This document shows, piece by piece, positions 803 to 24,967 of a stretch of DNA of 64,000 bases; the stretch's first letter is position 1, and each line of letters begins with the position of its first letter. This DNA is from Minisyncoccota bacterium (lineage in GTDB: Bacteria > Patescibacteriota > Microgenomatia > UBA1400 > PJMF01), in contig JAACWQ010000003.1 of the NCBI GenBank assembly GCA_009991965.1, positions 15,274 to 79,273 on the forward strand, in the 5' to 3' direction. Made by a program: the position numbers and the translations under genes. The notes under the pieces are model-generated. The model searched no databases, was not told the DNA's origin, and worked only from the letters and a program-made list of their open reading frames with translations.

Positions 803-1159
803 ATGGCAGATTCTCAGTTGTCTATTGCGGATGTTTTTAAGCAATTTCGCGCACCGTTCATTGGTAATATTTTGATCATTTTGCTCCAAGTTAGCATTGC
901 TGTAGTCGCGATCAATATACTTCAGCCTGTCGTGCCTCTGTTTAATAATCAACTACTCGCAACTAACACCCTGATGCCAAAAATTTGGCTCGCACTCCTA
1001 CCAGCTCTATCGCTCATCTTTAGTCTCTTCAGCCTGCTGTTGATGTTATTCTCCCGCTCACTTGGCTCCACAATTCTCAATATTTTTGCTTGGAGCAGCA
1101 CAACGATCAACGGCATTCTATTACTCTCACTAGTACGAATAGTTCTTTTGGTAAAATAA
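803..1159 (+). CDS. Small 3-4 TM membrane protein; possibly a GtrA-like lipid-linked sugar translocase (weak)
   Basis: It is 118 aa and almost entirely hydrophobic helices. It lies between glycosyltransferase genes with 3 nt spacing. Confidence 0.3.
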   Translation: MADSQLSIADVFKQFRAPFIGNILIILLQVSIAVVAINILQPVVPLFNNQLLATNTLMPKIWLALLPALSLIFSLFSLLLMLFSRSLGSTILNIFAWSSTTINGILLLSLVRIVLLVK

Positions 1160-1161
1160 CT

Positions 1162-2217
1162 ATGCTTTTTTTTCTCAGTTTTTTGCTGGCATTCTTAATC
1201 ACACCAATGGTGATTAAATTGTATAAAAAACATGGCTGGCTTGATGATCCAAAAAAACAAGTACATGCCAAAAAAACACATAAGATAGCGGTGCCGCGCG
1301 GTGGTGGGATTGTCGTGTTCTTTGCTATTCTCGTGTGTAGTCTTTTATTTTTACAATTTGATCAATACTTGCTTGCTATCTTGGCTGGTGCTGGCATTTT
1401 GGCGATAGTTGGTTTTCTTGATGATATCTACGATTTGCACCCCTTCCCCCGCCTACTTGCAAACGGTTTTGCCGCACTACTCGTTGTGGGATCTGGAATT
1501 GGTATCGCGTACGTCAGCAACCCGTTTGGTCCTGGCGTGATACATCTTGATCAGCCACAAATATCCTTTGCTTTTTTTGGTGAGATACGGAATATCTGGC
1601 TGCTTGCCGATCTGTTTGCAGTGCTGTTTATTATCTGGAACATAAACATTGTGAATTGGTCAAAAGGAGTTGATGGACAATTGCCAGGTTTTGCGGCCGC
1701 GGCGCTTGTATTTATTGGTTTGCTTTCAAGCAAGTTTGTTGGCGACCCCACCTCATTTAACACCGCACAACTCGCATTTATTGTGGCAGGCGCTTTCACC
1801 GGTCTCTTACTCTGGAACTGGTACCCGCAACGGATTATGCCGGGCTATGGGGCAGGATCACTAGCCGGTTTTTTCTTGGGTGTACTTGCTATTCTATCTG
1901 GCGCAAAACTAGCAACGACTCTGATGGTTCTCGCTATCCCAACTGCCGACGCAATTTTTACCATAGGCAGAAGGTTGTATGCAGGAAAATCACCATTCTG
2001 GGGTGACCGCGGTCACTTACATCATAAATTATTTGACACATTTGGATGGAGCAGACAAAAAATTGCAATCTTTTATAGTTTCTCGAGTATCGCGCTTGGT
2101 ACGCTCTCTCTCTATTTGAACACTATCGGAAAATTGCTTACAATTGCGATAACCATGAGCCTCGTGTTTGGTGTATTATTCTGGGTAAAGATCAAAAAAA
2201 GTACTCAAAAAAAATGA
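1162..2217 (+). CDS. Glycosyltransferase family 4 polyprenyl-phosphate N-acetylhexosamine-1-phosphate transferase (WecA/MraY superfamily)
   Basis: The DDxxD-like motif 'LDDIYDLHP' is present, the protein has multiple TM helices, and the conserved His is near the C-terminus (HLHHKL). The ATG at 1162 immediately follows the upstream stop. Confidence 0.75.
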   Translation: MLFFLSFLLAFLITPMVIKLYKKHGWLDDPKKQVHAKKTHKIAVPRGGGIVVFFAILVCSLLFLQFDQYLLAILAGAGILAIVGFLDDIYDLHPFPRLLANGFAALLVVGSGIGIAYVSNPFGPGVIHLDQPQISFAFFGEIRNIWLLADLFAVLFIIWNINIVNWSKGVDGQLPGFAAAALVFIGLLSSKFVGDPTSFNTAQLAFIVAGAFTGLLLWNWYPQRIMPGYGAGSLAGFFLGVLAILSGAKLATTLMVLAIPTADAIFTIGRRLYAGKSPFWGDRGHLHHKLFDTFGWSRQKIAIFYSFSSIALGTLSLYLNTIGKLLTIAITMSLVFGVLFWVKIKKSTQKK

Positions 2218-3185
2218 TGAAGAAATCCCCACTAATTCTGCTTTTTTTACTCATAAAATCTGCTCGTCCAAGACAATGGGTCAAAAATTTCTCGCTCTTT
2301 GCCGCACTCGTGTTTTCTGGCTTTTTGTTTTATGACCCAATTGACGCTCCTTCATATTTTTGGACGGTAACGCTTGCTGCTATCACTTTCACACTGGTTA
2401 CCTCTGCAATTTACATTGCCAACGATATTATTGACAAGGATGCCGATGCACAACATCCGTTTAAGAATAAACGACCAATTGCTTCTGGAGCACTTCCAGT
2501 TTCTTTGGCCAAAATAGCAGTCGTCGCACTGCTTGCCATTGCGGGATTTTTTACCCTCTACTTCTCACTCTTCTTTAAGCTGCTTATTTTGCTCTACGTT
2601 GTGTTGCAAATTGCCTACTCGAAAAAACTCAAACATATCCCCATTCTGGATGTTGCATCAATCGCACTTGGGTTTTTGATTCGTATTTATGCTGGATCCG
2701 TAGTTGTTGATTTGCACATGAGTGTTTGGTTCTTACTCACGGTGATATCCGCATCACTCTTTCTTGCGGTTGGGAAACGGCAGAGCGAGCGAACACTGCT
2801 GCTAGGAAATCCCGATGTCTCTGTAGGCTCCACTCGCAAAATTCTCAAACGATACAGCGAGCGTTTGCTTGACCAATATACTGCCATGTTTGCTACCGCT
2901 ACCTGGCTGACGTATGCAATTTTCACCTTCCAGAATGAAGTCGTTGTCCCGCAATCTGAATTTGCAACGCTCTTTCAACTTTTGCCAAAAACCCTGCATA
3001 CCCAAAAGTGGCTGATGATCTCAGTGCCGTTTGTGATTTTTGGAGTCATGAGATATTTGCAGTTAGTCTATGAGAAAAATCAGGGAGAATCACCAGAGCG
3101 CGTATTATTTAATGATAAGCCGTTATTGATTACACTCTTTCTCTTTGGCGTCAGCGTCATCTTTATCCTCTACCTACTCGCATAA
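2214..3185 (+). CDS. UbiA-family prenyltransferase, decaprenyl-phosphate 5-phosphoribosyltransferase (DPPR synthase)-like
   Basis: The N-terminal 'ARPRQWVKN' motif, the UbiA motif 'NDIIDKDADAQHP' and polytopic membrane topology are present. Its ATGA start overlaps the stop of the upstream gene. Confidence 0.65.
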   Translation: MMKKSPLILLFLLIKSARPRQWVKNFSLFAALVFSGFLFYDPIDAPSYFWTVTLAAITFTLVTSAIYIANDIIDKDADAQHPFKNKRPIASGALPVSLAKIAVVALLAIAGFFTLYFSLFFKLLILLYVVLQIAYSKKLKHIPILDVASIALGFLIRIYAGSVVVDLHMSVWFLLTVISASLFLAVGKRQSERTLLLGNPDVSVGSTRKILKRYSERLLDQYTAMFATATWLTYAIFTFQNEVVVPQSEFATLFQLLPKTLHTQKWLMISVPFVIFGVMRYLQLVYEKNQGESPERVLFNDKPLLITLFLFGVSVIFILYLLA

Positions 3186-3188
3186 CTT

Positions 3189-4457
3189 ATGCAGCGATTT
3201 GTAGAACGTTACTACAGCCCACTACTTGTATTGCTCATTGCTATTGCTTTTTTTTCGCGCCTCTACCGCGTACATATTCCAGAGAAATATATGTTTGATG
3301 AGGTATATCACGCCTCTACAGCAAAGTTGATTGCCCACAATGATCCACGAGCTTACGAGTGGAACGCCAAGTCTGATGAGAAGGATACCGCCATAGATTG
3401 GCTACATCCCCCTGGAGCTAAATTACTACAGGCAGGTAGTATGTTTTTGCTTGGAGAAACAAGCTTCGCATGGCGACTGAGCTCGGTGGTATTTGGCACA
3501 CTTGTCATACTAACGACTGTGTGGCTTGCGCAAGCGTTGTTTGAGGACAAACGCCTCTCACTGCTGGCTGGCGTGTTTGCTGCAAGCGATGGTTTGTTAC
3601 TCGTACAGTCGCGTATTGCGATGAATGATATTCATGTAACTTTTTTTATTTTGCAGACGCTCTTGTGGTATTGGTTATATCGCAAGAAAAAACTTCGTAA
3701 ATACTTTGTGGCAGCTGCAGTCATGGCTGGCTGCGCAATTGCGAGTAAATGGTCTGGAGTGTTCGCAATTGGTGTGGTTGGTTTGTTTGAAGTTGCTAGC
3801 GTGCAAATTACACAACATCGAATCAAAAACCTACGGCGAATTTTGCCCAACCTTGGTTTGTTGCTTTTGATTCCAGCAGCTCTATACCTAGCGAGCTACG
3901 GTCAAATGTGGCTGCAAGGTAAGCCATTGAGTCATTTTGTCGAACTACACAAACAAATCTGGGCCTATCAAACTACGCTAACTGCAACTCATCCCTATCA
4001 ATCGACCGCTCTGCAATGGTTTTTTAACATACGGCCAGTTTGGGTTGCAGTTGAATATGGAGTTGGCACGAGAGCAGACATATACGCTTTTGGTAATCCA
4101 GCACTGTTTGTTTGGGGAGCTATCGCGGTTATTTTGACAGCTGGAGTACTTGTATGGAAATTTAAAAAATCATCGCCCGCACTTCTGTTTCTGTTTGTTA
4201 GCTATCTTGTTGTTTGGGCACCCTGGGCATTCTCACCCAGAGTAATGTTTTTTTACCACTACGCACCAGCTGTTCCACTCCTCAGTATTATCCTGGCCTA
4301 TTGGGTGATGAAGCTAAAAAAGAAACGTGTTGTTATCAGCTGTATCAGCGGGAGCATCATACTTGCTGCTGTAGTTTGGTACCCGCACTGGACATTATTG
4401 CCTGTCTCAAATGCATTTGCAGACCAAGTGTACTTTCACTTTACAACGTGGAAGTAG
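3189..4457 (+). CDS. GT-C fold membrane glycosyltransferase, family 39 (PMT/ArnT-like)
   Basis: The N-terminal loop motif 'FDEVYHA' is present. The protein has 10 or more TM helices and a short C-terminal periplasmic region. Confidence 0.7.
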   Translation: MQRFVERYYSPLLVLLIAIAFFSRLYRVHIPEKYMFDEVYHASTAKLIAHNDPRAYEWNAKSDEKDTAIDWLHPPGAKLLQAGSMFLLGETSFAWRLSSVVFGTLVILTTVWLAQALFEDKRLSLLAGVFAASDGLLLVQSRIAMNDIHVTFFILQTLLWYWLYRKKKLRKYFVAAAVMAGCAIASKWSGVFAIGVVGLFEVASVQITQHRIKNLRRILPNLGLLLLIPAALYLASYGQMWLQGKPLSHFVELHKQIWAYQTTLTATHPYQSTALQWFFNIRPVWVAVEYGVGTRADIYAFGNPALFVWGAIAVILTAGVLVWKFKKSSPALLFLFVSYLVVWAPWAFSPRVMFFYHYAPAVPLLSIILAYWVMKLKKKRVVISCISGSIILAAVVWYPHWTLLPVSNAFADQVYFHFTTWK

Positions 4458-13683: not shown

Positions 13684-15087
13684 ATGCGCAAAGCGTACTG
13701 GTATTTGAGCGCGTACATCCGTAAACGCGGATTAATGGTTGTTGCTTCACTCGCGATAGCTATCGGATTTTTTTCTTTTGTCGTCCCTACCATCGCTACT
13801 CGACTAGAAAAGCGAGAACAATTTTATATTGGCATTATCGGTCAATACACCATTTATTCTTTGCCAGACATAGTAACTGATCAACTGAGTGTAGGACTCA
13901 CCGCCATAACCGGAAATGGTGGCGTGGTTCCCGTTTTAGCTAAACGCTGGGCAGTTGAACAAGGCGGGAAAACATACCGTTTTGTTCTCAAGGATGATCT
14001 CAAGTGGAGTGATGGAAGCAAGATCAAGCCAGAAGAAATTCAATTTAACCTCAAAGATACTACCGTTGCTACGACTGCGAATGATCTTATTTTCCAACTA
14101 CCTGCAGAATTTTCTCCCTTTCCTAGCCTGGTCGCGAAACCATTGCTGAAAATGTCGGAACAAAAAGTACCGTTTGCACGCAACAGACCACTCCCCGTTG
14201 GCATCGGCTCATATCGAATAAGTGATTACCATACACACAATAATCAACTCAAAGAGCTCGTCATTGATAGTGAAAAAGAACGATACATTTATCGTTTCTA
14301 CCAAACTGAGGAAGACGCAGAGACAGCGTTTAAACAGGGAAAAATTGACCTTTTGTTAGACTTGGTTCGGAAACATGAGATCTACGAGTGGCCAACCACA
14401 ACAACAACCAAGCGATTGAACGATAATCAATATGTTGCGCTCTTTTTTAATATGCAAGATCCACTGATGGCAAAAAATACTCGCCAAGTACTATCGTATA
14501 TAACAAGCAAACCAAGCGATGCTTCTCGAGCAATTGGGCCCATCAGTTCTAATTCTTGGGCATATCTATCGGGAGGAAAAGATTACGAAAAAGATTGGGA
14601 TCGAGCAGTCGAACGTTTGTTTGATGACGCCCCACAACTACCACTTATTTTTACCCTTACGACCACACAAACCTTTGCCGAACGAGCCGAGAGTATAAAA
14701 ACAGAATGGGAAGAATTTGGCGTCTACGCAGAGGAACAATGTGCGTCGGCAAAAGCAATAGAAAACAAAGACTTGTGCGCAAATATGCGCATCAAAGTAA
14801 CGCTAAAAATTTCTAACTTTCCCGACACCAATGACTTCCAACTGCTCCTCATCGGCCAAGAATCTCCTCCCGACCCTGACCAATATCATCTGTGGCACTC
14901 TGACCAAAACACCAACTTTACCCACTATAAAAATACGCGCATCGACAACTTGCTGGAAAAAGGCCGACAAACTTTTGAAGAGTCAGAGAGAAAACAAATC
15001 TATCAAGAATTTCAACAATTTATTCTCGAAGATCCTCCGGCAATTTTCTTGGAGCACTTGCTTACCTACGACGTCAGTCGTAAATAA
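13684..15087 (+). CDS. ABC transporter substrate-binding protein, family 5 (Opp/Dpp-like), membrane-anchored
   Basis: It has an N-terminal TM anchor. The family-5 SBP pattern 'GLTAITGNGGVVPVLAKRWAVEQGGKTYRFVLKDDLKWSDG' is present. Confidence 0.6.
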   Translation: MRKAYWYLSAYIRKRGLMVVASLAIAIGFFSFVVPTIATRLEKREQFYIGIIGQYTIYSLPDIVTDQLSVGLTAITGNGGVVPVLAKRWAVEQGGKTYRFVLKDDLKWSDGSKIKPEEIQFNLKDTTVATTANDLIFQLPAEFSPFPSLVAKPLLKMSEQKVPFARNRPLPVGIGSYRISDYHTHNNQLKELVIDSEKERYIYRFYQTEEDAETAFKQGKIDLLLDLVRKHEIYEWPTTTTTKRLNDNQYVALFFNMQDPLMAKNTRQVLSYITSKPSDASRAIGPISSNSWAYLSGGKDYEKDWDRAVERLFDDAPQLPLIFTLTTTQTFAERAESIKTEWEEFGVYAEEQCASAKAIENKDLCANMRIKVTLKISNFPDTNDFQLLLIGQESPPDPDQYHLWHSDQNTNFTHYKNTRIDNLLEKGRQTFEESERKQIYQEFQQFILEDPPAIFLEHLLTYDVSRK

Positions 15088-17340
15088 TCAGAGATGTCTG
15101 CGCCATTTGCGGAAAAGCTCAAACGCACGCGTCATCCAATACCATTGTGTCAGCGGAATATCTTGTGCTTCTAGGTACTGTACTTCTCTGCCCCCAAATC
15201 CGCGCTTGAAGAGCGATACGCCTGCAAAACGATGCGCATCCATACCTGGAGGCGCCACGCCCCACAGATTGTAACTCGTACAACCAGCTTGTTGTGCTTC
15301 AGCAATCACGCGCCACTGTACTGCGTACGCACCAGGCAACTTGCCATTTTCTGGTGTCGAAATACCATAGTGGTACACCGCCTGCTTGTGATACGTCAGC
15401 ACAAATGCGGTCGCCAACAATTGTGTGCCCTGATATGCAGAAACCAAGAAGGCCTGATTTTCTTGTGCAAAAATCTGGAACTGTTCAAATAAAAATTTGT
15501 AACTAAACGGCACAAAGTGATGTCGCTCTGCCACCAATCGCTGTTGTTCATAAAAATTTTGAATGTCCTTGGGATCGCGCGAAACTTCTGTTCGAATACC
15601 TTCGCCCTCCGTCTTTCTAATTGCTGAGCGAGTATTTTTCCGCATGCCTGCCAGAAGCTGCTCCTCACTTTGAGTAATATCTATTTCAATTGTCCGATCA
15701 GCCGTTACATGCATAGCTGCTTTGAGCGTGCCGAGCCGCGCGACTTCTGCGCGAGCTATTTCGTCGTCTACCAGCTGTGGACGAAAACGAATAAATGAGC
15801 AGTGTTGCTGCCGGACAATAGTTTTTATCTCAGAAAACATTGCTGCTACTGCCCGAGGTTCATCCCAATCGAGCACCGGACCACCAGGAAAGCTGCAGTA
15901 CGAGCCACGCCGAGCACGCTCAAAAATGCCGAGTGCTACTCCAGTCAACGATCCATTTCGATATAACCCAAGGCGAATAATTTTATTCCCCAGCCGTTCT
16001 TGAAATACCCCCCAATGCCAAGATTGTAGAAAGTTTGCCTCTGGACGATCAGCAATCCAGTTCTCCCAGATCTCTTTGTCGATAACTTCTTGAACCATGT
16101 ATTCAGGTGCTTTCTCGAGCAATTGCAGAATAGTTGTGGCCAATCGAACCGCGGTTGCCACACTCACTTGCGCATGAGTTGGAAGGGTGAAAACTGAGCG
16201 AGCAAGTTTCTCTGCTTGTGAACACGAACCAGAGTGATAGGCAGAATCCCAAACCACACTCCCACTATCAACTGCTGCGCGATACCAGCGGTCAGTGAGA
16301 TAAAAGTTGCTCTTTTTCAGATCAGCCGCTAATTGATCTGGATCTTGGACCACCAGCGGAACACGCAGAAGTGAATAAGGGCTTGTTTGCAAATCTGGAG
16401 CGAGTAAGTATTTTTTGAGTAGGCGAGCGTACACCGTCGCAATCAATGTCCGATGGTTCAACTGAGACGGCAAACGCCCCAACTGTTCCAAAACTAATTT
16501 TGCCTGGCCAACTGAGAGCTTTTCCAACACTAGAGTCATGCGGAGCACGGGGGTTGTGATAATACCGAGCTTCTGCGCTCCACGCTGCAGTACTTTACCT
16601 ATACCGAGTGAAAACGTTGCGCGAATAGAAACAGTTAGTAGCGGATACACAGCCTGTCGCCAAGTACTTCGTGAGCGTAATTGTTGCGGAGCTCGTTCAG
16701 TAGCAAGTAAACCCTGACGAAAAAGGCAGCAACCGCCAGCAACCGCATCAATTATTTTGTCTCGCCCAAATGATGTAACTAGTACATGGCCAAAACTTCC
16801 AAGCCGCCCGCCCGACGGCGCTACGCCACCAAACGCTTGCGCCAAATCTTCTATGAGCAGGAGACCGCGTTCGTCACACCAAGTGCGAATTGCTGCGACA
16901 TCAGCGGGATATCCTAACAAATGTTGGACCAAAACGACTTTTGCTTCTGGATTTTTTTCATATGCAGTTTGTAGTGTTGTGACATCTAGGTTGGGCGAAT
17001 GCTCACCGATATCGACAAATGCGGGCAGCATGTTGGCACCAATGATCGCCTCTTCTATTGCTGCACAGCTGAATGCTTGAGTCAGTACTTTCGTTCCTGG
17101 AGTGATCGGCAAGTTCTGCAGTGCAAATTGGATTGCATCTCTCCCCGTTGCAAAAAAATGGGGTTTAGAAAAATCAGGAAAGATCTCTTGTAACTTCTCG
17201 GCTAGCAAAGCTTGTGTTTCGGCACTATTAGGAGGAAATACGTACCACCAGAGTGTCTGACATGCGAACGTAAAAGAGTAGTTGGAGCCAAGACTGCCAA
17301 ACACTGGCTTGTTTTTTTTCATAGTATCTTTACTAGCCAC
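15088..17340 (-). CDS. Bifunctional protein: N-terminal DegT/DnrJ/EryC1-type PLP aminotransferase domain fused to a C-terminal FemAB-family (aminoacyl-tRNA-dependent) transferase domain
   Basis: The N-terminal roughly 330 aa match the DegT pattern (GRDAIQFAL...AFVDIG...LIEDLAQAFGG...VTSFGRDKII, with the Lys). The C-terminal roughly 420 aa match FemAB ('FLQSWHWGVFQE', 'GMRKNTRSAIRK', 'AYAVQWRVIAEAQQAGCTSYNLWGV'). Confidence 0.7.
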   Translation of the reverse strand: MASKDTMKKNKPVFGSLGSNYSFTFACQTLWWYVFPPNSAETQALLAEKLQEIFPDFSKPHFFATGRDAIQFALQNLPITPGTKVLTQAFSCAAIEEAIIGANMLPAFVDIGEHSPNLDVTTLQTAYEKNPEAKVVLVQHLLGYPADVAAIRTWCDERGLLLIEDLAQAFGGVAPSGGRLGSFGHVLVTSFGRDKIIDAVAGGCCLFRQGLLATERAPQQLRSRSTWRQAVYPLLTVSIRATFSLGIGKVLQRGAQKLGIITTPVLRMTLVLEKLSVGQAKLVLEQLGRLPSQLNHRTLIATVYARLLKKYLLAPDLQTSPYSLLRVPLVVQDPDQLAADLKKSNFYLTDRWYRAAVDSGSVVWDSAYHSGSCSQAEKLARSVFTLPTHAQVSVATAVRLATTILQLLEKAPEYMVQEVIDKEIWENWIADRPEANFLQSWHWGVFQERLGNKIIRLGLYRNGSLTGVALGIFERARRGSYCSFPGGPVLDWDEPRAVAAMFSEIKTIVRQQHCSFIRFRPQLVDDEIARAEVARLGTLKAAMHVTADRTIEIDITQSEEQLLAGMRKNTRSAIRKTEGEGIRTEVSRDPKDIQNFYEQQRLVAERHHFVPFSYKFLFEQFQIFAQENQAFLVSAYQGTQLLATAFVLTYHKQAVYHYGISTPENGKLPGAYAVQWRVIAEAQQAGCTSYNLWGVAPPGMDAHRFAGVSLFKRGFGGREVQYLEAQDIPLTQWYWMTRAFELFRKWRRHL

Positions 17341-18728
17341 TGTGGCATCCGCCCTTCAACTAATACTACCGTGTCTGCAGAAAGTGTCTGTATTCGCTGC
17401 AGTATTTCTGCTCTACTCGCAAACAATGTTGTAGCGAATTGTTTTGCAAATGCTTGTTTGCCAGCTTCCCCAAGATACCAAACTTCGCTGACATAGGCCG
17501 TAGCTTCGTGCGCCAGCTTGGTGTGCACTTTTCCTGATTCTGTTCCCAAGTCGATAATACCAGAGGTAAGTAAGATTTTTCTTGGAGCGACTTGCTGTCC
17601 AAGCAACTGCAATGCAGCCGAAAAACCATCTGGATTGCTCGTGCCCCCATCATCGATAATACGTGTGCCCGATTTTGTTGTACGCGTACGGATCCATTTT
17701 TCAGTGGGGACAAATGACTCCAGGCGAGTAGTAATTTGCTTCTCAGACAGGCCAAAATTTTGTGCTACAGCACGTACCGCCCGTATTGTATTTCCATAGT
17801 GATCACCAATGATTGCTGTTGTCACCTTTGGACCCTTGGCCAACCAAGTTTTTTCTACCTGCAGGGAGGCATGATTTTTAACCGCAGCAACAATCTTCAA
17901 AGCAGATTCATTGACACAATATACTTTCGCTTTTTCTGGCAGTGCTTCAAGCAACTCAGCTTTTGCCTGTGCAATTCTTTCTTGTGATCCAAAAAGCTCA
18001 AGATGTTGTTTTCCTAGCCCCGTCAGAATCGCAAGATCTGGTGGCAATACTGCAGTTAATCGAGCAATTTCTCCCGGACAATACGCTGCGTACTCCAAGA
18101 CCAATGTCTTAGCTGTTCCCAAATTTTTTAGTAAATAACGTGCAATTCCCAGTGCGGTATTGACTGATCCAGGCGTCGTACAAACACTCCCTCGCTCAGC
18201 TAAAACATGAGCCAACAATTGTTTGGTTGTTGTTTTACCGAAACTGCCAGTAATTCCAATTATGAAAACTTTTTTTGCGCGCAACAGATCCCGTACGCGA
18301 TGAAGATAATACGTCGTGAGTAACCAAACGACCCCATTCATGGCAATCGCCAAAAACAACAAAACTACCGGTGTGAAGAAATAGAGCAACACAGGTAATA
18401 CAAATAAACGACCTACTACCAAGGCTGGCACCGCAGTCAGCCAAGGGATTAACAGGTAGATGCTCAAAGTAACAAACAATAAACAGGAAACCAGCAGAAG
18501 CTTGACCCGCAGCGTTTTTACCGGACGCTTAAAAGTCATTGGTCGAACGAGGGCTAGAGAAGGCAGCAAATGTAAAATAACTTGACGACCAGAGAGTGAG
18601 TTCAGGTGTGCGTGCAGACGATCAAGTCGATACTCTTTTTGTTGTAGCAAACCAGACCACCATAGTAGCCCTGCGAAAAAATGTATCGACCAGCCAAACA
18701 AATAAAAAAGAAAAATTACGCTAAGCAT
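17319..18728 (-). CDS. MurF-like Mur-ligase (central and C-terminal domains) with an N-terminal polytopic membrane domain in place of the UDP-binding domain
   Basis: 'IIGITGSFGKTTTKQLLA', 'NTALGIA', 'DDGGTSNPDGF' (MurF-type DDSYNAN region) and 'LVEGRM' are present. The first roughly 150 aa contain 4-5 predicted TM helices. Confidence 0.7.
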   Translation of the reverse strand: MLSVIFLFYLFGWSIHFFAGLLWWSGLLQQKEYRLDRLHAHLNSLSGRQVILHLLPSLALVRPMTFKRPVKTLRVKLLLVSCLLFVTLSIYLLIPWLTAVPALVVGRLFVLPVLLYFFTPVVLLFLAIAMNGVVWLLTTYYLHRVRDLLRAKKVFIIGITGSFGKTTTKQLLAHVLAERGSVCTTPGSVNTALGIARYLLKNLGTAKTLVLEYAAYCPGEIARLTAVLPPDLAILTGLGKQHLELFGSQERIAQAKAELLEALPEKAKVYCVNESALKIVAAVKNHASLQVEKTWLAKGPKVTTAIIGDHYGNTIRAVRAVAQNFGLSEKQITTRLESFVPTEKWIRTRTTKSGTRIIDDGGTSNPDGFSAALQLLGQQVAPRKILLTSGIIDLGTESGKVHTKLAHEATAYVSEVWYLGEAGKQAFAKQFATTLFASRAEILQRIQTLSADTVVLVEGRMPQWLVKIL

Positions 18729-19467
18729 GTACTGCCTCTAGGATAAGCGCAGCGACTTTTTCTGGGTGGGTAAATGGCGACCCGTGTCTCGCGCCTGTAA
18801 TTAGTTGCAGCTTAGCATTTGGGATCCCCGCAAGCAGCCGATCGGCAAACTCCATCGGAGTAATGTTGTCATTTTCTCCCCAGATTACGGTGGTCGGAGC
18901 AACAATGTTTTTGAGCTCAGAATCGACCTCATGCTCGATCACTCTACGCATCGTTTCACGCATCATCGTATTTGCTTCTAGGTAATCTCGCTCGCCCGCC
19001 ATTCTATGTAGTAGCTGGCGTAGTGTGCCAGAAGTTGACAGTTTCTTTCCAAGTTTTGCCAAATGATAAAAGCCGTTTCGTTTTAATCGAGCAGAGAGGC
19101 TGTGGGAGCGAAAACCAGCGCTAGAGATTAAAATTAATGTTTGCACTTGCTGAGGAAAACGTGCGGCGTATGTAGTAGCCAGGTGTCCACCAAATGAGTG
19201 ACCAACGAGAACAAAATTTTGCTTGCCAACCAGCTGCTGCAAAAGCCACTGGACATATTCATCAACTCCCCAGGGCTGCTCGAGCGGTAATTCAAAACCA
19301 GGTAGTTTTAAAACAGATGCACGGACACCAGCCTCCTGTAGTAACCGAACTACTGGCTGCCACTTGGCGCTGGGAGCTGCGTCTCTTGACCATCCGTGGA
19401 GAATAATGACTTCTGGCGCTGTACTCGACATACCACCATTATACGCACCTCTAGAGCAAAAACGCAC
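18721..19467 (-). CDS. Alpha/beta-fold hydrolase
   Basis: The nucleophile elbow 'VGHSFGGH' is present. The His is in the C-terminal 'GARHGSP'. It overlaps the MurF-like start by 8 nt. Confidence 0.6.
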   Translation of the reverse strand: MRFCSRGAYNGGMSSTAPEVIILHGWSRDAAPSAKWQPVVRLLQEAGVRASVLKLPGFELPLEQPWGVDEYVQWLLQQLVGKQNFVLVGHSFGGHLATTYAARFPQQVQTLILISSAGFRSHSLSARLKRNGFYHLAKLGKKLSTSGTLRQLLHRMAGERDYLEANTMMRETMRRVIEHEVDSELKNIVAPTTVIWGENDNITPMEFADRLLAGIPNAKLQLITGARHGSPFTHPEKVAALILEAVHA

Positions 19468-19502
19468 CTTGTGTCAACCACAATATTTCGTATACTAGGC
19501 CG

Positions 19503-20171
19503 ATGAAAGCTAAAGTACTTCTGACCATTATAGTAAGCTCTGTTATCTTGTTTTCTGCCTGCACACCACCGGTACCAAGTAAACCGCCAATCAAAATCAA
19601 CACTCCTGCCGATCAAGCTACAAATACTACTAACCAAGCGCCACCGCTTGAAAATCAAAAGGAAACTATGCCACCAAACGGAAAAATAGAAAAGACGCTC
19701 TCAGATTTTGGCGAGATTAACGGAAAAATCGTCACCCTCACTACTACTAAAGGACCGATCGTTATTGAACTCTATCGAGAACAAGCACCGCTCACTACTG
19801 CCAACTTTCTCTCGCTAGTGAATAGTGGTTTTTACAACGGCATCGTCTTTCACCGAGTCATCGCAGATTTTATGGCTCAGGTTGGCGATCCATTGACTAA
19901 AGATCCGGGTAAAGAGTCGATGTGGGGAACTGGTGGTCCTGGTTACACAATTGCAGATGAGTTTGGACCTGGCCTGACACACAGCGGTCCAGGCATAGTT
20001 TCCATGGCAAACTCTGGGCCAAATACTGGCGGCAGTCAATTCTTCATCACGTACGCCGCAACCGATTGGCTCGATGGCAAACATGCTATTTTTGGTCATG
20101 TGACCCAAGGCATGGATGTAGTTAATCAGATTGTGGTTGGTGATTCGATTGTGTCGGTAAAGGTGGAGTAG
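19503..20171 (+). CDS. Peptidyl-prolyl cis-trans isomerase, cyclophilin type, lipoprotein
   Basis: The lipobox is 'LFSAC'. The cyclophilin motifs are 'FHRVIADFMAQVGD' and 'GSQFFITYAATDWLDGKHAIFG'. Confidence 0.85.
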   Translation: MKAKVLLTIIVSSVILFSACTPPVPSKPPIKINTPADQATNTTNQAPPLENQKETMPPNGKIEKTLSDFGEINGKIVTLTTTKGPIVIELYREQAPLTTANFLSLVNSGFYNGIVFHRVIADFMAQVGDPLTKDPGKESMWGTGGPGYTIADEFGPGLTHSGPGIVSMANSGPNTGGSQFFITYAATDWLDGKHAIFGHVTQGMDVVNQIVVGDSIVSVKVE

Positions 20172-20250: not shown

Positions 20251-22308
20251 GTGAGTCCAGCAGATTTCGCTGCAGGCTGGTGGCGCTTGCGACATCGTGG
20301 TGATGATGCCTGGGGATTGCTTACAAGGTCTGGTCAAATCACCCAACTTGAGCACGTACAAGCGTCAAATGGTAGCAGTCCCATACACGATCTAAGAAAC
20401 ATCCATACAGCTGCTAACTTGCGCGTCGCTCATGATCGCTACGTGACGAGTGGTCCACGTAGACCAGAAAATGCCCAACCATTTTTCCTTTCCGACGGAG
20501 CATTCACGTTGGGACTGGCACACAATGGAAATCTCCCAGTTGCAGTTGTTCAGCGCCTGCGCGAGCTACTGCACAAACCGTTGCCAGTTATCGCCAGCGA
20601 CTCTTGGGTGATGACCCAGTTTCTTCTCGAGTCGAGACAGAAGTATAAAACGTGGGAGGAGACATTTGTTGCCATGTTGCCACTCTTGCAAGGGGCATTT
20701 TCTTTGGCTTGCTTGACGGATGAAAATGTCATCTACGCCATCCGTGACCCTTGGGAAATCCGCCCACTCTGCCTAGGCAGGAAAAATGAAACTTGGGTCG
20801 TAGCGTCAGAAAGCGTAGCACTTGCCAATATGGGAGCCCAGTACGTTCGTGAGGTAGAACCTGGCGAAATAGTCCGACTAAATCCAGATGGGAGCAGCGG
20901 ATCGACGCTGTATGCCCAAGCCGACGAGCGACGCTGCGTGTTGGAAACAATTTACTTTTCGAAAAATGAGAGTGTTCATGACGGACAGACTATTCGAGAG
21001 CAGCGCAGGCGACTGGGAGAACTAGTCGGAGCTCGATTTAAAGAGAAAAAAATTGCCATTGATTGTGTGATTCCCATCTTAAACTCTGGCAAGCAAATGT
21101 CGATTGGGGTATCACACGCCCTAGAGATGGATAATACAGAAGCCATTAGTATTGCAACAGAGCTACGCTCATTTATTCAAAATACTCCCACCGCAAGAAC
21201 AGAAATAGTCAATCAAAAACATGTCGTTGATGGTGGTTATATCCAAGGCAAACGTATTCTCCTCTGTGACGACTCGCTGGTACGCGGAACCTCGCTAAGC
21301 GCTCTATTGGCAAAAATTCGTGAGCATAATCCAGCAGAGATTCACATTGTGCTTGGATCAGAACCAGTGGTAGACATCTGCGAATGGGGTATTGATTTGC
21401 CAACACGCGAAGAGCTTTTTGTTTTTCAGCTGCTGCAAACAAGACCTGACTGGAACAATACTGAAGAATACGAGGCATGGCTCTCCAAAGTAGAGCATCT
21501 GGTTGCAAAAAAACTCGGAGTAGATTCAGTGACCTACCTTGATAGAACCTCAGTCAATAAAGCACTCAAACGATCGGAAAATCAGCTCTGCCGACACTGC
21601 TTTGGTGGATCAGATCCTATCGAAAATAATCCCCCAACATATCGAGTGGAGCACTTGGAAGCTTTACGCAAGCAAAAAGTGCTGTTTTTTGCATCCGGTA
21701 GTGGCACCAACGTCGAGAATGTTTTGCAGCAGATGCAGGACGGGAAAATTCTTGCCAAACCAATTGGGGTAGTAACCAATAAACGGGACGGCGGAGTGAT
21801 GGATAGGGCCAGAGCATTTGGAGTCGAAACAACAGTTTTTTCTGCCAAGACATACGAACTAGATATTCTTTCATTTATAGTTTCACACCCAGAGGGGATT
21901 CCTGACGTAATCGTGCTAGCCGGATGGATGCGCATACTGTCTGATGAATTTCTCGAAAAGATAGAAAAACTTGGCGTGACAATCGTCAACCTGCATCCAG
22001 CACTCCTCTCTGGAAAAGGAGCGGGTTTTGTTGCTACCGCAGCAGGACGCGTGCCCGAACTACGAGGGGCCGATGTTATAGAACAAGCGCATCAAAAACC
22101 TCTTGCAGAAATGCCAGTTACGGGCGCAACGGTACATCAGGTGCTTCCAGCCCACAAGGTTGATACGGGCAGAGTTATTATCAAAGAGGAAGTAGCACGT
22201 CGTGAGGATGAAACGTTAGCTGAGCTTACGGCTCGAATACACAAGGCTGAGTATCGTATACTGCCAATTGCAATACAACGGATATTGCTAGAACGTTTGA
22301 AAGTATGA
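20251..22308 (+). CDS. Fusion of amidophosphoribosyltransferase (PurF: Ntn glutaminase + PRTase) with phosphoribosylglycinamide formyltransferase (PurN-like). The annotated GTG start is probably downstream of the true N-terminus.
   Basis: PurF motifs: 'LRHRGDDAWGL', 'QPFFLSDGAFTLGLAHNGNL', 'WVVASESVAL', 'LLCDDSLVRGTS'. PurN motifs: 'VLFFASGSGTNVENVL', 'VIVLAGWMRILS', 'NLHPALL'. The in-frame upstream extension encodes 'HCGVLATCG', which matches the PurF N-terminal catalytic Cys. Confidence 0.75.
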   Translation: MSPADFAAGWWRLRHRGDDAWGLLTRSGQITQLEHVQASNGSSPIHDLRNIHTAANLRVAHDRYVTSGPRRPENAQPFFLSDGAFTLGLAHNGNLPVAVVQRLRELLHKPLPVIASDSWVMTQFLLESRQKYKTWEETFVAMLPLLQGAFSLACLTDENVIYAIRDPWEIRPLCLGRKNETWVVASESVALANMGAQYVREVEPGEIVRLNPDGSSGSTLYAQADERRCVLETIYFSKNESVHDGQTIREQRRRLGELVGARFKEKKIAIDCVIPILNSGKQMSIGVSHALEMDNTEAISIATELRSFIQNTPTARTEIVNQKHVVDGGYIQGKRILLCDDSLVRGTSLSALLAKIREHNPAEIHIVLGSEPVVDICEWGIDLPTREELFVFQLLQTRPDWNNTEEYEAWLSKVEHLVAKKLGVDSVTYLDRTSVNKALKRSENQLCRHCFGGSDPIENNPPTYRVEHLEALRKQKVLFFASGSGTNVENVLQQMQDGKILAKPIGVVTNKRDGGVMDRARAFGVETTVFSAKTYELDILSFIVSHPEGIPDVIVLAGWMRILSDEFLEKIEKLGVTIVNLHPALLSGKGAGFVATAAGRVPELRGADVIEQAHQKPLAEMPVTGATVHQVLPAHKVDTGRVIIKEEVARREDETLAELTARIHKAEYRILPIAIQRILLERLKV

Positions 22309-23885
22309 CAAAACACCAAAAACTCAGCCTTCTTTTTGCAGCCATCGGCCTCCTCTGCCTCACCTTCGCCTTTGGCATTTTGCTGAGCGCCAATGCCTAT
22401 CACCTTTTGCGTAGTGGTAAGTATGAGCAGTCGCTCAAAAACGCACGCCAAGCGTTGCCAATTGCGAGATTGGTGAATAAAACATGGGTAAGCGGCCTAA
22501 AAACAATTGTAGCTGCAAACACAACCCTGCTTTCACTGCAAAAAATTCAAGAGAATGTTGATAACGGCGAAACACCAAACATCACAGAATTTGCGGGTAA
22601 TTTAAAAGAGCTTGAAGTCAGCGCGCAAGCCGTATCTGTGAATATTGAAAATTCGAAATTTCTCACTCGTTTACTCGGCTCAAAACTAGGCAAACTAGAT
22701 ACAGCAATAGAAACGCTAACTCACGTTGTGCCGCTTGCACAGTACTTTACCGAAGGAGAGAAAACGCTCCTTGTTCTCTTGCAAAACTCCGATGAGTTGC
22801 GTGCAACTGGCGGTTTCATGGGCTCGTATGCATTGCTGCATTTCAATTCAGGTAGTTTGAGCGAGATCCTAGTTGAAGATATTTACGACGCAGATGGACA
22901 AGTTCAGGAATACTTTGAACCACCAAAAGGTGTAGCTGAGTTCTTGAGCGGAGGCAAGGGTTGGCGTCTGCCCGATGCCAATTGGAATCCTGACTTTGCG
23001 CTGAGTTCACAAGATACCCTGCGCTTTTTTGCTCTGGCCAGTCGCAATCATATTGATGGTGTTGTGGCGATCAATTTACCAGTCGTCCAATCTCTGCTTG
23101 CTATCACTGGCCCTATCACACTTTCTGACCAAGATATTGTTTTGAGTGAAACGAATGTCGATCAAGTACTTAGAGCAGACAGAGACGCGTTTTTTGCTGG
23201 AAGTACTGCGAAAAAAGACATTATAGCGCTGGCCACTACACAACTAAAATTGGCGGTGGCGAAACTAAACACCGAAGAAAAAAAACAAATCATAGAACAA
23301 TTTCGACAACAGATTTTGCGTGGGAATGTACTAGTCTATTTCCCCAATCAAGAATTGGAAAAGCAAGCCCAAGCACTTGGCCTGTCTGGTTCGCTCGGTC
23401 CTCAAACACTACAGTCCAATACACTTTTTTATTATCCACTTGAATCAAACGTAGGCATCAACAAAGTAAATGCGGCTGTCACCCGTGAGTTTGTCATGAC
23501 GACCTCGGACACCCTGACAGAACTTGGCATCAGTTTGCACAACAACAGCACGCAGGATGGATATGTGAATTATCAGCGACTGCTCTTTAGCCCCGGCCAA
23601 GACATAGAACAAATTGTTGTCAACGGTGAACAGGTATCGGAGTTTGATCGAGAAACAGTCACCAGCAGCACTGGCCAGCAATATGACCAGATTGGGTTTC
23701 TTGTCACCACCCTGCCAAATAATATAACGCGCATTGCTCTTACCTTGACTCACTCTGCGGATTTTTTAAACATACTGCTGCAAAAACAACCAGGAACTGC
23801 CGACACAACACTCACGAGCATCACGCAAAATGGTGCCAAAACACACCAGCTCGATCAATCTTTTCTCGAGTACATGATAGAATGA
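22305..23885 (+). CDS. Membrane-anchored extracytoplasmic protein, DUF4012-like (family assignment tentative)
   Basis: It has an N-terminal TM helix. '[20 protein letters not shown]' resembles the conserved core of DUF4012 proteins that are common next to cell-wall genes in CPR genomes. It overlaps the purFN stop by 4 nt. Confidence 0.4.
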
Positions 23886-24967
23886 TCGATATGTCAGACA
23901 TTAAAAAAGCAAGTGCTCTCCTCGAAGAATTAGGGATTTCGACGCTACAGGCGAATCATCAAGCACTCGAAGCGAAAACGCTCACGCCTGAATTCTGGCA
24001 GCAGGCAGACGCACAAGAAATCCTCAGCCAACTCAATTTTGCACAAGAACAATTGAACATGGCAACTGAGTTGGAGGCTGCGCTGACAGACATGGAGTTA
24101 TTACAAACTTTACTTGCATCTGCGACCGAAGGCAGCGATGACTATCTAGACCTCGAGCAACAGTTGGCAAACAGCAATAAGAAACTGGACAAACTTGTTC
24201 GCAAAGTCACTCTACGACAGTACTTAAGCGGATCGTATGACAGTTTTGGCGCCATTATTTCCATTCACTCCGGACAAGGCGGCACCGAAGCAATGGATTG
24301 GGCTGATATGTTGCGACGCATGTATGTGCGTTACTTTGAGCGAAAAAACTGGAAATTTGAGTTGCTCAGCGAATCTCGAGGGGAAGAAGCAGGCATCAAA
24401 AGTGCAGAGTACGAAGTCCATGGACCGTTTGTGTACGGCTATCTCAAGCATGAACGTGGCACACACCGACTTGTACGTCAGAGTCCGTTTAATGCCGATG
24501 GTTTGCGCCAAACTTCGTTTGCCCTACTCTCTGTCTTACCACTTATTCCAGAAAGTGAAAAATCTGTGGTTATCGAAGATGGAGATCTGGAGTGGCAATT
24601 CTCACGTGCTGGTGGTGCTGGCGGACAAAATGTTAACAAGGTAAGTAGCGCGGTAGAACTCACACACAAACCAACCGGCATTGTCGTTCGTTGCAGAGAA
24701 GAACGCTCTCAGGTGCAAAACAAAGAGCGTGCAATGCAAAAGCTTCGGGCCGAGCTTGCGTTCCGCGAAGAAACTGCCCGAGAAGAATCACTGGCAAAAG
24801 AAAAAGGTGCGCACACTCATGCCAGCTGGGGTAACCAAATCCGCAACTACGTCTTGCATCCGTACAAGCAAATCAAAGATGTGCGAACAGCAGTCGTACG
24901 CACCGATGTACAGGCTGTGCTCGATGGCGACCTGGATGAGTTTGTGGAAGCGGAACTCAGCCTCTAG
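23882..24967 (+). CDS. prfB: Peptide chain release factor 2
   Basis: The 'SPF' motif (RQSPFNADG), the GGQ motif ([12 protein letters not shown]) and 'SGQGGTEA' are present. It is a single continuous ORF with no +1 frameshift. Confidence 0.9.

Follow-up and report, generated by a model that had tools for sequence, protein, structure and literature searches.

Members of the Patescibacteria (CPR) account for a large share of bacterial diversity and retain peptidoglycan synthesis in tiny genomes, and to our knowledge their wall chemistry has hardly been studied. Two kinds of described systems offer partial precedents for the protein considered here. Bougioukou et al. are said to have found in 2013 that the N-terminal domain of DhpH, an enzyme of dehydrophos biosynthesis in Streptomyces luridus, is PLP dependent and supplies the Ala(P) amine. 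The C-terminal FemX-like domain of DhpH acylates the amine of Ala(P) using Leu-tRNA (PMC12945691). Orf11 of the BD-12 pathway and Sbb17 resemble FemX and use aminoacyl-tRNA to acylate an amino sugar on its amino group (PMC12945691), and Sbb17 has been solved bound to streptothrisamine (PDB 9WQX). The catalytic lysine of FemX (Lys305) and of DhpH-C (Lys329) lies in an F-K motif (PMC12945691). A literature search on FemAB and DegT together returned no relevant paper; the original prediction that a fusion of these two families has no characterized example holds for the DegT-FemAB combination itself, but it overlooked Orf11/Sbb17 and DhpH as related precedents.

We analyzed such a fusion in the window, by which we mean the whole 64,000-nucleotide stretch of DNA, where it is encoded in a three-gene unit with the following features:

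18721..19431, minus strand: cytoplasmic alpha/beta-fold serine hydrolase, 236 aa, with a GHSFG nucleophile motif
17319..18728, minus strand: MurF-like Mur ligase, 469 aa (profile and PDB matches)
15088..17322, minus strand: fusion gene, 744 codons plus a TGA stop, starting with the ATG at 17322
16117..17304, minus strand: DegT/DnrJ/EryC1/StrS-family PLP domain, aa ~7 to 402 (Pfam and Foldseek)
16846-16848, minus strand: Asp159, within LIEDLAQ (aligns to the catalytic residue of 4qgr and 2oga)
16756-16758, minus strand: Schiff-base Lys189, within SFGRDK (aligns to the catalytic residue of 4qgr and 2oga)
16102..16116, minus strand: junction, residues 403 to 407 (EKAPE; alignment to standalone homologs)
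15091..16101, minus strand: putative FemX-type aminoacyl-tRNA-dependent transferase domain, aa 408 to 744 (Pfam and Foldseek)
aa 560 to 565: basic helix MRKNTR (alignment, invariant residues)
15205-15207, minus strand: Lys706, in the FKRGFGG motif (aligns with FemA and Sbb17)

The hydrolase gene leads this unit, with an 8-nt overlap between its stop and the start of the ligase gene; the ligase stop in turn shares 4 nt (ATGA) with the ATG of the fusion. A promoter and terminator scan of positions 14800 to 19700 gave matches no more numerous than in shuffled sequence, and so no sign of signals inside the unit.

The mechanical open reading frame runs without interruption from 15088 to 17340 on the minus strand (750 aa from a GTG at 17340), and gene callers in four assemblies chose the ATG at 17322, giving 744 aa. 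That a DegT-family and a FemAB-family enzyme share a single polypeptide, as the original prediction claimed, is borne out by this uninterrupted frame and by matches of both Pfam families to the one protein. The prediction had itself named a merger of two genes through assembly or frameshift error as the outcome to look for, and we regard this as next to impossible: no stop or frameshift lies between the halves, the reading frame continues across the junction, which is conserved within its clade, and the 744-aa protein is identical in JGI 3300004210, ENA ERZ27293386, JGI 3300025150, and NCBI GCA_002772675.1, which are independent assemblies from different samples and pipelines. Fused orthologs also span 28 to 76% identity, with 13 fused clusters at 90% identity and 28 distinct fused representatives of 703 to 885 aa at 50% identity. 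The fusion is a genuine covalent, bifunctional protein encoded by a real gene.

The join between the halves lies near residue 405, about 70 residues downstream of the boundary near residue 330 that had been proposed. The peptide quoted as the start of the FemAB-like half, VRLATTILQLLEKAPEYMVQEV, was given with the right letters, but it begins at residue 392 (744-aa numbering; 398 in the 750-aa numbering). Standalone DegT homologs stop at about residue 402 and standalone FemX homologs start at 403 to 408, and the EKAPE junction marks the former site of the ancestral DegT stop and FemX start. There is practically no linker between the halves in the lineage of the window; other fused lineages have low-complexity linkers of 10 to 35 aa.

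The N-terminal half has the fold-type-I PLP fold and belongs to the DegT family by its score against Pfam DegT_DnrJ_EryC1 (PF01041; E value of 2.6e-34, 119.5 bits against a cutoff of 19.8, aa 65 to 401 in the 750-aa numbering) and by its structural matches, with Foldseek TM scores of 0.74 to 0.79 to ArnB-like, PseC, and DesV structures (4LC3, 4QGR, 2FN6, and 2OGA). It shares this fold with the nucleotide-sugar aminotransferases (PseC, ArnB, DesV, WbpE, and perosamine synthase), together with the Schiff-base Lys, the Asp at the pyridine nitrogen, the stacking Phe, and the SF...K and EDxAQ motifs, and both Lys189 and Asp159 are invariant in the 13 fusions. The half nevertheless forms a clade apart from these enzymes, with bit scores dropping from 204 through 142 and 124 to 66 outside the module family. 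It carries motifs of its own (the N-terminal SLGSNY, which is specific to this DegT-like family, and DRWYR), GRDA in place of G(T/S)xA, and an insertion of about 35 residues after the lysine strand. All NCBIfam sugar-aminotransferase equivalogs (PseC, LegC, WecE, ArnB, DesI, and RfbH) scored far below their cutoffs, the best being PseC with 77 bits against 423.5.

The C-terminal half is a double GNAT without the coiled-coil insert, matched by Pfam FemAB (PF02388; E value of 2e-32, 113 bits against a curated cutoff of 24), and Acetyltransf_6 also matches the fusion polypeptide (E value of 3.3e-13). In the AlphaFold2 (AF2) model this half has TM scores of 0.81 to 0.82 to FemX (1NE9 and 4II9; rmsd of ~3.1 Å) and 0.80 to Sbb17 (9WQX). 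F705-K706 in AGVSLFKRGFGG aligns to FKKG of FemA and FKLGFGG of Sbb17 and shows no variation across 13 fusions and 42 FemX halves; by way of FemA and the published review (PMC12945691), Lys706 would be the equivalent of FemX Lys305. An invariant basic helix (M560-R561-K562-x-T-R565) aligns with the tRNA-binding region of FemX and lends indirect support to an aminoacyl-tRNA as the probable donor. With catalytic residues invariant in both halves, both active sites look intact. The acceptor side differs from that of the peptidoglycan enzymes, since by alignment the residues of Weissella FemX that bind UDP-MurNAc-pentapeptide are absent (K36 is Q or H, and R211 is an invariant F) and D108 is replaced by an invariant R. 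The FemX equivalog NF047883 (UDP-MurNAc-pentapeptide-lysine N6-alanyltransferase) gave only 45.6 bits against a cutoff of 500.

The hydrolase, the MurF-like ligase, and the DegT-like and FemX-like proteins form a conserved module in Patescibacteria, which we examined in 80 GTDB loci probed solely with the four module proteins and eight Escherichia coli dcw proteins. In 67 of 77 classified loci the DegT-like and FemX-like genes are separate, most with a stop-to-start spacing of -4, -19, or 1 to 15 nt (66 of 72 fall within ±32 nt), and in most Patescibacteria the halves are translationally coupled neighboring genes. Readthrough of an in-frame stop in the split loci was considered and rejected, as only 12 of 72 split pairs share a frame, fewer than the one-third expected by chance. 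Simple neighbor-joining trees of each half, built without support values, agreed on two fused clades, both of which have split-gene sisters, while a third fused lineage (L087) stands apart; this topology indicates at least two independent fusions, which appear to have joined end to end two neighboring genes that most Patescibacteria keep apart. In some lineages another FemX-like gene follows immediately downstream, resembling the series of Fem enzymes that builds interpeptide bridges. MurL-MurD, apparent MraY-FtsW, and PurF-PurN-like fusions occur in the same gene clusters, and the MurL-MurD fusion adjoins the module in two loci (L064 and L072).

These genomes are compact, and because gene pairs in them overlap or abut, loss of a stop codon easily fuses genes. 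The halves could on this account be two independent, co-transcribed envelope enzymes that gained nothing but co-expression from their union, a reading with which the other fusions just listed are compatible. We consider it a long shot, given that nearly all of the ~80 species loci have the two genes side by side in an unchanged order despite two module arrangements and varied flanking genes, that fusion arose at least twice, and that the AF2 model (pLDDT of 95.7 and pTM of 0.93 across both domains) predicts a rigid, fixed arrangement of the two domains. The universal adjacency, the recurrent independent fusion, and the confident two-domain model together strongly imply functional coupling of the halves; channeling of substrate between them, which the original prediction had read from the fusion, is plausible.

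The central domain of the ligase is clearly MurF-like, with the P-loop GITGSFGKTTTK, and 8 of its 9 PDB matches are MurF, query residue 154 aligning to about MurF residue 82. The first ~145 residues form 3 or 4 hydrophobic segments in place of the N-terminal UDP-binding domain of MurF; among the module ligases, type I has transmembrane segments in place of this domain and type II lacks it, with the P-loop at about aa 37. The window ligase scores 174 bits against the TIGR01143 murF model (cutoff of 288.6), and MurF orthology of the module ligases is assigned from synteny and sub-threshold scores of 100 to 174 bits against that cutoff. The DegT-like module gene is always accompanied by a MurF-like ligase and a hydrolase, and where upstream sequence is available, the hydrolase gene nearly always adjoins the DegT/FemX pair. 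Hydrolase matches were limited to generic carboxylesterases and C-C hydrolases and gave no functional clue.

In some genomes the dcw cluster itself houses the module, which sits between murE and mraY. One locus (L032) reads murE-hyd-murF-like-degT-femX-mraY/ftsW-murG on one strand, placing the ligase at the murF position of the dcw order, and another (L080) reads hyd-lig-degT-femX-murD-(murC)-mraY-murE, where the module ligase is the sole MurF-like ligase; murC, murD, murE, or mraY adjoins the module in four more (L070, L064, L062, and L071). The module of the window itself lies outside any dcw cluster, and no further Mur ligase was found within the 64 kb besides that of the module.

This context bears directly on the pathway originally predicted, in which the DegT half converts an NDP-4-keto sugar to an NDP-4-amino sugar that is then acylated. 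More broadly, an NDP-4-keto (or 3-keto) sugar would be aminated by the DegT half and N-aminoacylated from aminoacyl-tRNA by the Fem half, for a surface glycan or S-layer glycoprotein. The likeness of the DegT half to nucleotide-sugar aminotransferases in sequence and fold speaks for such a role, as do the activity of Orf11/Sbb17 on an amino sugar, with an FK.GFGG motif almost exactly shared, and an acceptor pocket unlike that of the peptidoglycan Fem enzymes. Against it, no sugar 4,6-dehydratase, oxidoreductase, nucleotidyltransferase, or glycosyltransferase was found beside the pair in the loci with annotated neighbors, which sets the module gene apart from the sugar aminotransferases; a canonical relative (L096) has all four, and a distant canonical relative (P0110) sits in a glycan cluster with dehydratase/oxidoreductase and glycosyltransferase neighbors. 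With a MurF-like ligase, a hydrolase, and mur/dcw genes as neighbors instead, and with every sugar-aminotransferase equivalog far under its cutoff, the amino-sugar pathway is poorly supported and we judge it unlikely. The context is that of peptidoglycan-precursor synthesis rather than glycan synthesis, and the database names "FemA/FemB family protein," "perosamine synthetase," and "dTDP-4-amino-4,6-dideoxygalactose transaminase" are probably misleading for the module DegT-like/FemX-like family.

We consider it slightly better than an even bet that the fusion is a bifunctional tailoring enzyme of cytoplasmic peptidoglycan-precursor synthesis, performing PLP chemistry and tRNA-dependent aminoacylation consecutively. 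The PLP half would make or process a primary amine on a precursor or peptide building block, most simply by transamination of a carbonyl, and the Fem half would next acylate an amine with an amino acid from aminoacyl-tRNA, so that the stem peptide would be branched or lengthened ahead of the transfer of the precursor to the lipid carrier by MraY. With both domains in one protein and held in a fixed arrangement, the consecutive steps would stay together. This proposal is supported by the MurF identity of the solved relatives of the ligase and by the dcw neighbors in the six loci named above; counting against it, we know of no evident carbonyl substrate for transamination among the known peptidoglycan precursors. 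The identity of the substrate, the order of the two reactions, and channeling, if any, are our inferences. Because the Fem half lacks the equivalents of K36, R211, and D108 and the ligase lacks the UDP-binding N-domain, the substrate may not be a UDP-MurNAc-peptide at all.

That double absence is also compatible with a different division of labor, in which an amino acid, such as a D-amino acid formed from a 2-oxo acid, is the product of the PLP half, the Fem half joins an aminoacyl-tRNA-derived residue to it, and the MurF-like ligase adds the resulting dipeptide to the stem, a tRNA-dependent counterpart of Alr plus Ddl plus MurF. No partner of the pair is more tightly linked or better conserved than the MurF-like ligase, an enzyme type that normally takes a dipeptide as co-substrate; the invariant Arg that replaces the "DP" Asp in the Fem acceptor pocket could bind a carboxylate; and DhpH-C accepts a free amino-acid analog. 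A probe with E. coli DdlB found no Ddl homolog in 93 loci, weak evidence in that each locus spans only ±7 to 10 kb and says nothing on whole genomes, and a literature search on alr and ddl in CPR found nothing. Because tRNA carries L-amino acids or glycine, stem position 4 would receive an L residue under this scheme, an outcome incompatible with DD-transpeptidation unless the residue is epimerized, and we know of no DegT-family enzyme with a free amino acid as its product; the scheme strikes us as rather improbable.

A bolder version, which we offer as a speculation with a small chance of being right, is that the module draws on tRNA, with the help of PLP chemistry, to build part of the stem peptide or invert its stereochemistry and functionally replaces Alr/Ddl-type D-amino-acid supply in reduced genomes. 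Once the Fem half had brought in an L-amino acid from tRNA, its free alpha-amino group would undergo epimerization or transamination by the PLP half, on the aminoacyl ester or just after transfer, and the MurF-like ligase without its N-domain would then install the product. If true, it would introduce the first DegT-family enzyme whose target is a peptidyl or aminoacyl amine, as well as the first step in which tRNA contributes to the core of the stem peptide and not to a side branch.

Returning to the tailoring enzyme that we favor, the analysis defines a conserved four-gene module that is tied to murF and sometimes embedded in dcw, whose PLP-dependent and putatively tRNA-dependent enzymes have repeatedly fused, and in which neither the Fem nor the MurF-like member has the elements that usually recognize UDP-MurNAc. 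The module points to peptidoglycan chemistry in these bacteria that has yet to be described. As a single polypeptide, the protein in the window is a handy entry point to what may be a new peptidoglycan modification or precursor route, and it could reveal a new type of reaction for the DegT family.

Set against known systems, the fusion is an uncharacterized variant of known enzyme kinds. The Fem half shares with Weissella viridescens FemX (UDP-MurNAc-pentapeptide:L-alanine transferase) and Staphylococcus aureus FmhB/FemA the double GNAT without coiled coil, the FK(R/K)G catalytic-lysine motif, the basic tRNA-binding helix, and a cytoplasmic peptidoglycan-precursor gene context next to MurF; it differs in being fused or coupled to a PLP enzyme, in the Arg at the conserved "DP" Asp108, and in overall sequence, with only ~17% identity. 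Orf11/Sbb17 have a nearly identical AG..FK.GFGG motif, but they are standalone antibiotic-pathway enzymes without a fused aminotransferase, and the Fem half is more weakly related to them in sequence (E value of 1e-12) than to Fem proteins (1e-17 to 1e-22). The NCBIfam models for MurF-Alr and MurC-Ddl, and MurL with MurD, are precedents for consecutive stem-peptide steps on one polypeptide, although they combine other enzyme families of known chemistry, with neither tRNA nor a DegT-type PLP enzyme. An analog in architecture, likened by description and not by sequence comparison, is DhpH, a two-domain protein with a C-terminal FemX-like domain whose catalytic F-K pair matches the FK motif. DhpH acts on a small phosphonate in an actinomycete secondary-metabolite pathway and its N-terminal domain is probably not of the DegT family, but the action of DhpH-C on Ala(P) offers by analogy an earlier case of a FemX-like domain that is passed an amine.

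A single uninterrupted reading frame encodes both transferase-type domains, as the original prediction held, and it belongs to a three-gene unit (hydrolase, MurF-like ligase, fusion) joined by 8- and 4-nt overlaps:

18721-19431, alpha/beta-hydrolase
17319-18728, minus strand, MurF-like ligase
15088-17340, minus strand, mechanical fusion ORF, uninterrupted, 750 aa from a GTG
17322 (ATG), minus strand, called start of the fusion gene, used by gene callers in four assemblies and giving 744 aa

This ATG shares bases with the TGA of the upstream gene in an ATGA overlap. At the other end no intergenic base is left at 15085-15090, where the TAA of a convergent SBP_bac_5 gene (15085-15087) abuts the minus-strand TGA of the fusion (15088-15090); a scan of this region for terminator-like sites found no excess over shuffled sequence. 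Pfam recovered DegT_DnrJ_EryC1 (E 2.6e-34), FemAB (E 2e-32) and the related Acetyltransf_6 (E 3.3e-13) on the ORF, and NCBIfam gave sub-threshold matches only, the top sugar aminotransferase being PseC (77 bits, cut-off 423) and FemX reaching 45.6 bits (cut-off 500). The joint had been placed near residue 330; the peptide quoted for it is correct but starts at residue 392, and standalone relatives, in which DegT ends at about residue 402 and FemX begins at residues 403 to 408, move the joint to about 402-408. In the window's lineage it is almost without a linker (LL-EKAPEY-MVQEV), while other fused lineages have low-complexity linkers of 10 to 35 residues.

The chance that two genes were joined artefactually is close to nil. 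An assembly or frameshift error is ruled out by the occurrence of the identical protein in four assemblies (two JGI metagenomes, one ENA assembly, and NCBI MAG GCA_002772675.1, "Candidatus Pacebacteria") together with other fused relatives: a word-indexed search recovered 13 fused clusters (35 to 100% identity), and a phmmer search, exhaustive over 1.84 billion representatives, held at least 28 fused 50%-identity representatives (703 to 885 aa, 28 to 65% identity) among its best 150 matches.

Both halves retain core features of their families. In the DegT half, alignment puts Lys189 (SFGRDK) in the place of the Schiff-base lysine of solved DegT enzymes and Asp159 (IEDLAQ) in that of their cofactor aspartate; both are invariant in 13 fusions, as are the family-specific motifs SLGSNY, GR(D/E)A, DRWYR and LPTH. 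Foldseek matched the DegT half to ArnB-like, PseC and DesV aminotransferases (TM 0.74 to 0.79) and the Fem half to Weissella FemX (TM 0.82, rmsd 3.1 A) and to Sbb17 bound to streptothrisamine (TM 0.80). An AlphaFold2 model spans both domains with a mean pLDDT of 95.7 and a pTM of 0.93.

Nearly all of 80 GTDB species loci show the gene order Hyd-(Lig)-DegT-FemX, and 10 of the 80 carry a single fused ORF. In the relatives P0016, P0026 and P0104 a DegT-like gene of ~415 aa is directly followed by a FemX-like gene of ~340 aa; stop-to-start spacing lies within +/-32 nt in 66 of 72 split loci, mostly as a -4 or -19 nt overlap or a 1-15 nt gap. Neighbor-joining trees of each half yielded the same two fused clades, one containing the window (L001/L014/L015/L005) and nested among split forms, the other (L009/L024-L027) sister to split Levy-/Daviesbacteria-type forms, with fused L087 apart from both. 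Judged from these matching sequence trees, the halves appear to co-evolve and to have fused at least twice.

The module occurs in two arrangements, type I (Hyd-Lig-DegT-FemX, ligase of ~480 aa; L011-L019, L028-L052 and others) and type II (Lig'-Hyd-DegT-FemX, ligase of ~420 aa; L009, L021, L053-L093). The top match of both ligases is MurF, below cut-off, and for the window ligase nearly every relative with a solved structure is a MurF. Both lack the N-terminal UDP-binding domain of MurF; the type II P-loop lies at about residue 37, and at least two hydrophobic segments precede the P-loop in 45 of 47 type I loci. In type I the domain is replaced by 2 to 4 such segments, probably transmembrane.

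In locus L032 the genes run murE-hyd-lig-degT-femX-(mraY+ftsW ORF)-murG along a single strand; this matches the canonical order of a dcw cluster, the module being placed around murF. Locus L080 reads hyd-lig-degT-femX-murD-(murC)-mraY-murE, and murC, murD, murE or mraY lie near the module in L070, L064, L072, L062 and L071. By this synteny the module's ligase may be the cell's only MurF despite its missing N-domain. P0110, a distant canonical DegT, lies among genes for 4,6-dehydratase/epimerase, UDP-sugar dehydrogenase and glycosyltransferase functions, and P0105, the out-group closest to the DegT of the module, again adjoins a Mur ligase. Two further fusions occur in these neighborhoods:

L032:9389-11575, plus strand, apparent MraY-FtsW fusion, stop-free 729-aa ORF immediately following the FemX-like gene (matched by E. 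coli MraY at 150 bits and by FtsW at 196 bits)
L064:2084-4408 and L072:2740-5079, both minus strand, MurL-like plus MurD protein of 775-780 aa

In the latter, MurD (313 bits, above cut-off) is preceded by an N-terminal region resembling MurL, the UDP-MurNAc-L-Ala-L-Glu epimerase (251 bits, short of its cut-off), suggesting that Daviesbacteria-type genomes have fused the addition of L-Glu to its subsequent epimerisation.

We lean toward reading the fusion as a bifunctional tailoring enzyme in the cytoplasmic synthesis of peptidoglycan precursors, where PLP chemistry and aminoacylation from tRNA would be consecutive steps. The originally proposed amination of an NDP-keto-sugar followed by acylation is unlikely. 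A tRNA-dependent supply of dipeptides or building blocks to the adjacent MurF-like ligase seems rather improbable, and mere co-expression of two metabolically uncoupled halves quite improbable.

Other genes in the window were as follows:

1090-4457, plus strand, three co-directional membrane enzymes: Glycos_transf_4 (MraY/WecA-type), UbiA-family prenyltransferase, PMT-type (dolichyl-phosphate-mannose-like) glycosyltransferase
20251-22308, plus strand, PurF-like plus PurN-like protein, 685 aa, with class-II glutamine amidotransferase, phosphoribosyltransferase and C-terminal formyltransferase domains
22305-24967, plus strand, DUF4012 protein, release factor 2 and cyclophilin PPIase, also in L005, L007 and L011-L013

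The membrane enzymes may form a lipid-linked glycosylation unit, and the 685-aa protein is kept in sister assemblies L001-L004. Throughout type I lineages the last group keeps its synteny with the module, but P0013-type loci lack it, a pattern that looks like vertical synteny rather than module membership. Many MAGs with the Patescibacteria-type module and synteny (L016, L021, L033, L036, L040, L045-L050 and others) have record titles that read "uncultured Pseudomonadales/Gammaproteobacteria," "Methylococcaceae" or "Limisphaerales," and one bears the isolate name HK-STAS-PATE-15; the record-level taxonomy of such MAGs looks unreliable.

A literature search found no paper joining FemAB and DegT in this manner and none that deals with the module in Patescibacteria; the proteins are already public in databases under generic or probably misleading names. 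Residues F705-K706 in AGVSLFKRGFGG line up with FKKG of FemA and FKLGFGG of Sbb17 and correspond to the catalytic F-K pair that has been described in FemX and DhpH-C; the basic helix MRKNTR is invariant. When the Fem-half profile was aligned to Weissella FemX, however, the acceptor site differed: K36 is replaced by Q/H, R211 (also Arg in FmhB) by an invariant Phe, and Asp108 of the "DP" motif common to FemX, FmhB and FemA by an invariant Arg. Together with a ligase lacking the N-domain, these replacements suggest that the acceptor is held otherwise than UDP-MurNAc-pentapeptide. MurE proteins near the module score best against DAP-adding MurE, and one possible acceptor would be the D-centre of DAP, with its amine beside a carboxylate, which an Arg could bind. 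A second FemX-like paralogue ~1 kb downstream of the first (split DegT in L067, L076 and L091; fused in L087 and L090) recalls the FemX/FemA/FemB series that builds multi-residue interpeptide bridges. For the fusion itself, the partial precedents are DhpH, which has a tRNA-dependent FemX-like domain, and Orf11 and Sbb17, tRNA-dependent FemX-like enzymes of antibiotic pathways.
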